From a virus (taxonomy: Duplodnaviria; Heunggongvirae; Uroviricota; Caudoviricetes), in the IMG/VR virus record IMGVR_UViG_2751185971_000005, positions 1 to 35,421 of that record: a DNA stretch of 35,421 nucleotides; one strand, 5' to 3'. The translations under genes were made by a program, and so were the position numbers. Below, piece after piece: positions 9,446 to 10,502 of the stretch (positions are counted from its first letter, which is position 1; every line of letters starts with the position of its first letter). The notes beneath the pieces are model-generated. The model was not told the origin of the DNA and did no database searches. It saw nothing but the letters and a program-made list of their open reading frames with translations.

Positions 9446-9480
9446 AGCACGTTCTTGCATACGACGTGGCTACGGGTTTC
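9446..9480. repeat. Hairpin-forming repeat copy A (AGCACG-TTCTTGCATACGACGTG-GCTACGG-GTTTC)
   Basis: About 35-bp imperfect direct repeat of 10467-10502; internal palindrome CGTAGCACG / CGTGGCTACG; about 190 bp upstream of the GIY-YIG start. Confidence 0.6.
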
Positions 9481-9666
9481 GAGACCGACCCGATCATCAA
9501 ACGAAACATAAAATTAGCTCACATTATGAGGAAATGTATCTTTTTGCGCTATGTAAATTCAAAGGGTTAGCCTCATTTTCCCGATGGCTTTCTCAACACT
9601 ACTAGTTGTGAGCCCTTGCAATGTTCATTAATATACGTCTCACAAATAATTCACAGATATTGCAAA

Positions 9667-10440
9667 ATGGATATTACTGAGTTTCCTTCTGGAGTAATTG
9701 AACACCTTGGCTGGTATGTATACCGATTGATTGATCCTAGGGACGGAAGCACCTTCTATGTAGGGAAAGGCAAAGGTAACCGCGTATTTGCCCATATGCG
9801 CGGTGAAGTGGCAGCGGCTGATGATGACGAGTTACTGAGCAACAAGCTAAAGCAAATCAGAGAAATAAGATTAGCGGGACTTGAAGTTATCCATGTCATC
9901 CATCGACATGGAATGACTGATGAAAAGACGGCGTACGAAGTTGAAGCAGCACTTATTGATGCCTACCCTGGGTTAACGAATATCATGAATGGTGCTGGCA
10001 GCAATGAATTCGGCGCCGCGCATGTCAAAGAGTTGATAGCAACATATCAACCCGAAACCATAACATTTCATCATAAAGCATTAATGATTTCCGTTAACAG
10101 AAGTGCAAAGGATTCAGAGCTTTATGATGCGGTTCGATTTAGCTGGCGCATTAATGTCTCTCGCGCCAGCCAAGCAGAAGTCATTCTTGCTACTGTAAGG
10201 GGAATCGTTCGAGGGGTTTTCATTGCTGATAAATGGCTCAAATCAACACGTGAAAATTTCCCTACGATGAAATACTGGGACGAGGATCCGGACTTTGAGG
10301 CAACACAAAGTTCTCGCTATGGTTTTGAAGGTCGAGAAGCCCCACCTGAAATAGCAAATCTTTATCTTGGAAAAAAAATACCAGATGAATTAAGAAAAAA
10401 AGGAGCTATGTCCCCGGTCCGTTACTCACCTAATTTTTGA
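9667..10440 (+). CDS. GIY-YIG nuclease domain protein with uncharacterised C-terminal domain of about 170 aa
   Basis: N-terminal [31 protein letters not shown] matches GIY-x10-YIG followed by the conserved Arg and a downstream Glu; start placed at the ATG at 9667 (the track ORF begins at a TTG at 9616). Confidence 0.7.
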
Positions 10441-10466
10441 GTCTTTAAGTGATAAGCATAAACCGC

Positions 10467-10502
10467 AGCACGATCTTCTTGCATACGACGTGCTACGGTT
10501 TC
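10467..10502. repeat. Hairpin-forming repeat copy B (AGCACG-ATC-TTCTTGCATACGACGTG-CTACGG-TTTC); possible bidirectional terminator
   Basis: Direct repeat of 9446-9480; lies in the 60-bp gap between the convergent GIY-YIG and invertase genes and overlaps the invertase stop codon. Confidence 0.6.

Follow-up and report, generated by a model that had tools for sequence, protein, structure and literature searches.

A prophage cassette encoding the type IV restriction enzyme CMoRE and the conserved hairpin family found at its edges

Here we describe a defence-gene locus in a 35,421-nucleotide (nt) stretch of viral DNA (IMG/VR record IMGVR_UViG_2751185971_000005, Caudoviricetes), hereafter the window, which matches Escherichia coli strain 2023CK-01509 identically over the stretch tested. 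Judged from its sequence, the plus-strand gene at the centre of this locus is a near-identical copy of the characterised type IV restriction enzyme CMoRE (PD-T4-3), and it is flanked by two direct copies of a hairpin-forming repeat. Our best explanation, to which as a whole we assign a probability of roughly 0.8, is that an e14-like prophage integrated at thrW has a cargo slot with the tail-fibre/invertase genes on one side and the end of its phage-type genes on the other, and that CMoRE occupies this slot as a self-contained moron consisting of a promoter region, one gene and a terminator hairpin. The features of the locus are the following.

9287-9442, plus strand: non-coding module upstream of hairpin copy 1, with a long form (9287-9377) and a core (about 9378-9442) present in nearly all copies
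9443-9480, plus strand: hairpin copy 1, with the stem CGTAGCACG / CGTG-G-CTACG, a 13-nt loop and then GGTTTC
9481-9666, plus strand: cassette leader, 37% G+C, presumed promoter region of the nuclease gene
9667-10440, plus strand: CMoRE / PD-T4-3 gene, 257 amino acids (WP_000355479.1), the ATG at 9667 being the RefSeq start
10464-10502, no strand assigned: hairpin copy 2, between CMoRE and pin where the two genes converge
10501-11055/11091, minus strand: pinE-type serine DNA invertase gene (pin; Pfam Resolvase 1.2e-51 and HTH_7 5e-13; RefSeq pinE)
11117-11136 and 13054-13073, inverted: Pin crossover pair, 20-nt repeats AAACGTTGGTTTGGGAGAAG and CTTCTCCCAAACCAAGGTTT, 95% complementary

Residues 1-256 of the predicted nuclease align to positions 1-255 of the 256 in the PADLOC PD-T4-3 model (PDLC04031; E 2.2e-140), and 254 of its 257 residues are identical to those of E. 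coli O157:H7 CMoRE in the PDB entry 9U75 (chain 9U75_A; E 1e-172). The three substitutions with respect to that structure are D55E, which turns the DDDD of the acidic loop (residues 52-55) into DDDE, K168Q and H196N. The GIY-x10-YIG motif noticed in a preliminary description of this DNA is in place, with Y17, Y19, Y31 and the catalytic arginine R39 all present as in 9U75, and the C-terminal part that was then regarded as unrecognised (residues 110-257, aligned to 9U75 without gaps and with two substitutions) belongs to a domain since solved as a sensor of 5-hydroxymethylcytosine (5hmC) and its glucosylated form (5ghmC) (PMC12923530). RefSeq labels the protein 'LEM-3-like GIY-YIG domain-containing protein', in line with its match to Pfam LEM-3_GIY-YIG (PF22945; 2.4e-14); it also matches phrog_5356, and no NCBIfam family matches it. 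The longest open frame, with a TTG start, spans 9616-10440.

The study that renamed PD-T4-3 as CMoRE reports that DNA with 5hmC or glucosyl-5hmC is degraded by the enzyme, which confers protection against T-even phages, that its N-terminal nuclease domain is of a 'GIYxY-YIG' type (Y17, Y19, Y31), that an acidic loop blocks the active site and thus renders it autoinhibited on unmodified DNA, and that the C-terminal domain has a new fold and binds the modified base (5hmC/5ghmC); its authors expressed the gene from its native promoter (PMC12923530). In a clinical isolate studied by knockouts, just two defence systems proved active in their native host, and PD-T4-3 was one of them. Cutting of 5hmC/5ghmC DNA and protection against T-even phages are probably carried over to the window allele from this 99% identical protein. 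If so, its C-terminal domain would bind DNA containing 5-hydroxymethyl- or glucosyl-hydroxymethyl-cytosine, the N-terminal GIYxY-YIG domain would then cut, and the acidic loop would keep the enzyme off unmodified host DNA, leaving the lysogen protected from T-even phages.

Of the two roles first considered for this protein, that of a defence or exclusion nuclease is supported, CMoRE being a modification-dependent restriction enzyme of the same functional class as McrA. The other, a free-standing homing endonuclease (Seg/I-TevI type) that spreads its gene by cutting empty sites, we regard as highly improbable. It would suit the GIY-YIG domain, the presence/absence polymorphism described below and a weak match to the homing-endonuclease family phrog_314 (E 0.0022), which covers residues 17-149, that is, the N-terminal domain alone. 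However, the 99% identical enzyme cuts 5hmC/5ghmC DNA only (PMC12923530), Pfam finds just the LEM-3-like GIY-YIG domain and no NUMOD, IENR or HTH module, and the PD-T4-3 defence model (2.2e-140) is far closer. The CMoRE gene is present in 958 of 5,426 complete E. coli genomes (~18%), and its alleles fall into a group of at least 95% identity (843 records) and another at ~75% (119 records). The gene itself is nothing new, being a further example of a defence enzyme whose structures are solved and whose mechanism is known.

We turn therefore to its flanks. The two repeats are direct and imperfect, as first noted, and slightly longer than the originally reported 9446-9480 and 10467-10502: they extend over 9443-9480 and 10464-10502, match in 35 of 36 aligned columns, three small indels aside, and share an exact 17-nt core (TTCTTGCATACGACGTG). 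Allowing up to three mismatches, this core occurs at two places only in the 35-kb window (0.08 expected), a number reached in none of 100 shuffles. The predicted ability of each repeat to form a stem-loop was borne out, both copies forming a stem of 10-11 bp and a loop of 13-16 nt and folding more stably than shuffled controls on either strand (copies 1 and 2, respectively: −26.7 and −18.4 kcal/mol on the plus strand, z −4.4 and −2.95; −25.2 and −25.0 kcal/mol on the minus strand, z −2.6 and −3.7). Copy 1 is both the 3' end of the non-coding module and the left boundary of the cassette. The stem of copy 2, which starts 2 nt after the pin stop codon, is free of mismatches when read on the minus strand. 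The left arm and loop of this copy (CCGCAGCACG ATC TTCTTGCATACGA) belong to the type that moves together with the cassette, and its right arm and tail (CGTGCTACGG TTTCATTTATCTCC) to the type linked to pin. Compared with the cassette hairpin of two other viral contigs (L019 and L053, see below), copy 2 is therefore chimeric, joining a left arm of the cassette type to a right arm of the pin type, which accounts for its C.A mismatch on the plus strand (a G.U pair on the minus strand).

Two other identities of the repeats were discarded. They are too long and imperfect for target-site duplications, and there is no transposase. Neither are they sites for Pin/Gin/Hin invertases, since the true inverted pair lies at 11117-11136/13054-13073 and the hairpin copies are direct; moreover, instead of the AAACC-NN-GGTTT centre of the ~26-bp inverted sites of these enzymes, the hairpins have AAACC and GGTTT ~30 nt apart.

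Comparison with related prophages supports the proposed mobility of the cassette, with the repeats as its boundaries. A query made of the left flank, one hairpin and pin, for which a match counted if at least 80% of the query aligned at a single place, retrieved 366 E. coli records with the same flanks, one hairpin and no nuclease gene. In the top match, strain QDFD216, the empty site is a single contiguous piece whose hairpin is copy 1 up to CTACGG and then runs straight into the TTTCATTTATCTCC found after copy 2. The window and QDFD216 thus differ by a clean ~1.02 kb indel with the hairpin as its boundary, and both junctions of the window cassette, which has 42% G+C versus ~54% in the prophage, map near one hairpin point between ...CGTG and CTACGG. 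The empty sites show one copy and an unchanged gene order, as an empty site should look, and not the repeats without the gene in a rearranged order. Conversely, the gene and its 3' hairpin occur beside other neighbours elsewhere. For the O157:H7 copy, the sequence in common with the window begins at 9470 (CTACGGGTTTCGAGACCGA) and lies wholly to the right of this point, its left-hand context consisting of unrelated insertion sequence and AraC remnants. In the IMG/VR viral contigs L019 and L053, an acyltransferase cassette takes the place of pin after the same gene and its 3' hairpin, which here is a C-G variant that pairs perfectly and has another tail. These two contigs carry serial cassettes 1.0-2.7 kb after the module, in the order module-hairpin, CMoRE, hairpin, Acyltransferase_3 (355 amino acids) and tail-fibre assembly genes. 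Hairpin arms also occur in mixed combinations beside pin, and empty sites differ at the hairpin joint, the bulged G of copy 1 being kept in L003 and not in L086.

A simple mechanism could produce this pattern. The same ~35-40 bp at many cassette boundaries would offer homology for RecA or for phage recombinases of the Red/Rad52 type, and recombination between two hairpin copies would insert, delete or swap the intervening DNA, which would explain the filled and empty alleles as well as the chimeric copy 2. Lambda is known to recombine with defective prophages via short diverged homologies through Red/Rad52-type recombinases (PMC3945230). Because L003 and L086 differ in the bulged G, crossovers appear to have taken place at different points of the shared ~38 bp, a variation that suggests homologous and not site-specific exchange.

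Copy 1 belongs to a far wider family. The module core through the hairpin (~9378-9480, ~100 nt) is found in 5,385 of the 5,426 E. coli genomes (99%), at 14,293 places (median 2, up to 9 per genome) that are nearly always unannotated, and in 192 phage records, among which are those of lambda, HK97 and many Shiga toxin (Stx) phages, with both Stx1a and Stx2a phages represented; the longer form from 9287 is common to lambda and a subset of prophages. Among 120 viral contigs retrieved through the module core pattern, most have the module immediately behind the stop codon of a DinI-like gene, whose 3' untranslated region it forms. K-12 MG1655 carries a copy of module and hairpin at NC_000913.3 ~304,211-304,313 (L129 4212-4314), in the spacer between ecpE and ykgJ and in the orientation of both genes, the spacer matching the module over 90 nt at 84%. 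In some prophages a ykgJ homologue follows directly after the module.

This last match to K-12 raises the alternative that the hairpins are site-specific recombination sites (an attachment (att) core, or attC-like) served by a tyrosine integrase in trans through circle intermediates. A 96-bp att derived from the same ykgJ-ecpE spacer, 'attB-in-PP_2', has been described together with lambda-like phages that integrate into the effector loci of other prophages (PMC8112680), and from its position, length and distribution, the occurrence in Stx1a and Stx2a phages matching that description, the module is very likely this attB-in-PP_2. That both window junctions fall near one hairpin point would also agree with such a site, inverted repeats being typical of integrase core sites. 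Nevertheless, no integrase lies in or beside the 1-kb cassette, and the neighbouring serine invertase has its own sites elsewhere; the window prophage integrates at thrW and not at the module; copy 2 repeats the ~38-bp hairpin alone, not a ~96-bp att; and empty sites vary in where the parental hairpins join. Inspection by eye found no integron core motifs (GTTRRRY/RYYYAAC) in the sequence: the hairpins are flanked by AGCCAGT/ATAAACC on one side and GGTTTCG/GGTTTCA on the other, and no intI is annotated in 49 kb. We therefore hold the site-specific alternative to be unlikely, at perhaps one chance in eight. A role of the module as the own att site of the window prophage was rejected, since this prophage is bounded by thrW repeats.

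The hairpin is the part of the module whose structure is conserved. Conservation of the module was profiled on 88 distinct copies and covariation of the stem on 77, in which 93% of the stem cells are paired and seven of the ten pairs have changed on both sides, for example from C-G to U-A in 13 sequences and from A-U to G-C in 9. None of 500 shuffles reached the observed values, and partner columns slid out of register were only 19-52% paired. An eleventh pair at the stem base covaries between A-U and G-C, and every variant folds, with energies between −6 and −24 kcal/mol that are −12 or stronger in most. RNAalifold on the 65-nt leader of the module returned weak stems alone, and we claim no structured RNA beyond the hairpin. 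At gathering thresholds Rfam assigned no family in the region; at relaxed thresholds the Shigella small RNA model CssrB (RF02799) scored 24.5, 19.7 and 28 bits against a gathering threshold of 76, which is below family membership, the match being to the terminal hairpin of the 180-nt model alone and on the minus strand. RefSeq places a 27-amino-acid 'capsid protein' pseudogene fragment at 9376-9456 (minus strand) and at many other module copies. We rejected the repeat as a fragment of such a coding gene, given that it has no open frame and its stem is kept by compensatory changes; the call is likely an annotation artefact from a mis-named phage open reading frame. A full-text literature search for the hairpin and core sequences found no paper, and the family of structure-conserved hairpins at the cassette joints of lambdoid prophages and of lambda itself is thus apparently undescribed, a modest new observation.

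The reading of the repeats as terminators, already offered in the preliminary description, agrees with the covarying stem and with the U-rich tails that follow it on the cargo strand. At least five T occur in the 9 nt after the stem in 46 of 77 copies on this strand and in none of the 77 on the other, and the hairpin thus looks like a Rho-independent-type terminator of the cargo-strand transcript. In the window, the hairpin with its U-rich tail at 10464-10514 folds at −18.4 kcal/mol on the plus strand, the tail being encoded by the last codons of pin. Placed between CMoRE and pin, this hairpin probably terminates both convergent transcripts. At the other end of the cassette, a possible promoter (TTGTGA-17 nt-TAATAT) was spotted by eye ~30 nt upstream of the ATG, below the threshold of the scanner.

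Directly downstream of the module the sequence diverges, and the first genes vary widely among loci. The cargo found after the module comprises the following.

CMoRE; Ea47 of lambda; YnaE/YdfK and YkgJ homologues
GmrSD-type type IV enzyme (PADLOC mREase_IV); DUF4145 protein
Acyltransferase_3 proteins; diguanylate cyclase; IpaH-type NEL and NleG-like effectors
Methyltransferase, with a hairpin on both sides
EcoRII-like endonuclease with C5 methyltransferase

The slot beside the tail-fibre genes of lambda-like prophages is known as an exchangeable effector locus in enterohaemorrhagic E. coli (PMC8112680). In lambda (J02459), the module lies at 24,162-24,277 on the l-strand, between ea31 and ea47, and is 88% identical, and a second, diverged hairpin is found at 22,573-22,606 between ea47 and tfa; ea47 is thus bracketed. 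The two lambda hairpins (24,162-24,195 and 22,573-22,606; L007 3083-3116 and 4672-4705) display a compensatory C-G to A-U change, and neither is annotated. In empty ea47 slots (L014 and L117) the module leads through one hybrid hairpin directly into tfa. EC0026B harbours an EcoRII-like restriction-modification pair between two ~100-nt direct copies of the whole module (L004 3500-3693 and 7080-7180); at L004 6810-6845 there is a half-hairpin relic followed by TTTTCGAGACCGA, resembling the left edge of the CMoRE cassette. In UPEC129 (L131 560-4274), a prophage at ssrA carries the GmrSD-type (DUF262) type IV enzyme after the DinI-like gene and the module. A 75%-identical CMoRE allele lies across dinI from it, past a tmRNA-like att remnant, so that two enzymes against modified phage DNA lie less than 4 kb apart.

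These loci bear on a further alternative, namely that the hairpins are ordinary terminators related by descent, with no role in mobility, and that the indel arose by illegitimate recombination. Morons by definition carry their own terminators, and most module loci have one hairpin, as this alternative would have it. Yet in two independent contexts each edge of the indel falls at the hairpin, copy 2 is chimeric, the filled/empty pattern with a hybrid hairpin is repeated at lambda ea47, and the loop is conserved too (the exact 17-nt core), though terminators need no loop sequence. We consequently see little room for descent without mobility, which we rank well below site-specific recombination and above homing.

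Beyond the CMoRE locus itself, we tentatively propose that the hairpin and its ~65-nt leader form a dedicated, structure-conserved boundary element of the accessory-gene slots beside the tail-fibre genes of lambda-like and e14-like prophages, lambda ea47 included, whose direct copies would delimit exchangeable cassettes. These would be moved from prophage to prophage by recombination in the hairpin, either homologous or carried out by a phage integrase for which this sequence serves as att; we give this general proposal somewhat less than an even chance of being right. Several observations weigh against our best explanation of the CMoRE locus. Two-hairpin brackets are a minority in an nhmmer scan (~15 of 127 loci), most loci having one detectable hairpin. 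The ~75% CMoRE allele of UPEC129 lies without a hairpin bracket, the GmrSD gene filling the module slot, and the idea that the same bracket is kept around the diverged allele had to be dropped. At the sequence level the indel is compatible with either insertion or deletion, and the difference between L003 and L086 could be a later 1-nt indel and not a crossover position. The plus strand shows just a modest excess of G.U over A.C cells (52 vs 31). Finally, a consensus promoter/terminator scan returned no plus-strand sites in the locus and none in the module; it misses the hairpins because it does not allow for loops as long as theirs (13-16 nt) and because copy 1 has a U-poor tail.

The setting of the cassette is that of a prophage edge. 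As stated in the preliminary description, the nuclease gene is convergent with the invertase gene, pin being on the minus strand, and the 3' end of pin is the fixed right flank of the cassette slot. Past the invertase come an invertible tail-fibre segment and then Mu/e14-type baseplate genes. Because the 1.96 kb between the 11117 and 13054 repeats hold alternative C-termini of the tail fibre as well as two pairs of genes for tail-fibre assembly, this is the Pin-invertible host-range segment. The placement of the cassette at the prophage terminus holds in part: phage-type homology, to prophages at other chromosomal sites, does stop near 9287, but the att-bounded island continues to 3257-3304, where an exact 48-nt repeat of the 3' end of tRNA-Thr (thrW) forms its far att repeat. 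The integrase of the prophage adjoins tRNA-Thr, and its integration site is thrW; a tRNA scan of the window found no tRNA. Genes for a BCCT transporter (7042-9045) and a DUF2254 protein (5701-6993), together with one hypothetical gene, are located beyond the last phage-type gene and, given the thrW repeat, within the island. An Rfam int-alpA RNA motif at 1751-1818 (minus strand; 46.7 bits, E 9e-7, above the gathering score) maps in the coordinates of strain 2023CK-01509 to the paoC/paoD junction and not beside an integrase or alpA, which is an odd place for it.

The interest of the locus resides in its flanks, since a module present in 99% of E. coli genomes and in lambda marks joints where very different prophage cargo is swapped, including three restriction systems. 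Should the hairpin truly guide cassette exchange, the cargo and defence slots of lambdoid prophages could be found by a simple sequence handle, and the spread of such genes would have a testable mechanism.

Among known systems, the closest is O157:H7 CMoRE, which the window protein resembles in length, GIYxY-YIG motif, acidic loop and sensing domain, and which is likewise a single-gene system of an E. coli prophage beside pinE. McrA of e14 in K-12, the analogue invoked in the preliminary description, resembles CMoRE in being a modification-dependent type IV enzyme in the slot between pin and the prophage end. The analogy holds for this position, mcrA adjoining pin. McrA differs in that it has an unrelated fold (HNH) and targets 5-methylcytosine and 5hmC (CMoRE, hmC/ghmC), its gene is on the strand of pin, and e14 is devoid of the hairpin, its homology to the window ending at the pin stop codon. 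The cassette also resembles the morons of lambdoid phages (HK97/HK022; PMC3594210), which are extra genes of low G+C with their own upstream region and a downstream stem-loop, present or absent among close prophages and useful to the lysogen. It departs from the definition of a moron in that its hairpin comes from one conserved family, also precedes the cassette and recurs around other cargo.

As for the module, it shares with attB-in-PP_2 its origin in the ykgJ-ecpE spacer, a similar length, and occurrence in effector loci at the ends of lambda-like prophages and in Stx phages; attB-in-PP_2 is treated as an integration site in PMC8112680 and the module here as a hairpin/terminator and cassette boundary, the equivalence of the two being our inference. 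Finally, the promoter-stem-loop elements (PeSLs) of T4-type phages are proposed to drive modular shuffling through recombination between their copies, and they form mini-circles (PMC2839356). Like the hairpin family, they are repeated stem-loop terminators at the edges of insertions, deletions and replacements in plastic genome regions, and a conserved stem-loop is likewise found at both edges of the CMoRE, lambda ea47 and EcoRII restriction-modification indels or replacements. Unlike the module, which has no evident promoter, PeSLs join a strong early (sigma-70) promoter to the stem-loop and belong to virulent T4-type phages, and the likeness is one of arrangement, with no sequence similarity implied. 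If the boundary-element proposal is correct, the hairpin and its leader would be the lambdoid counterpart of PeSLs, with CMoRE, GmrSD, EcoRII, effectors and surface-modifying enzymes as their cargo.

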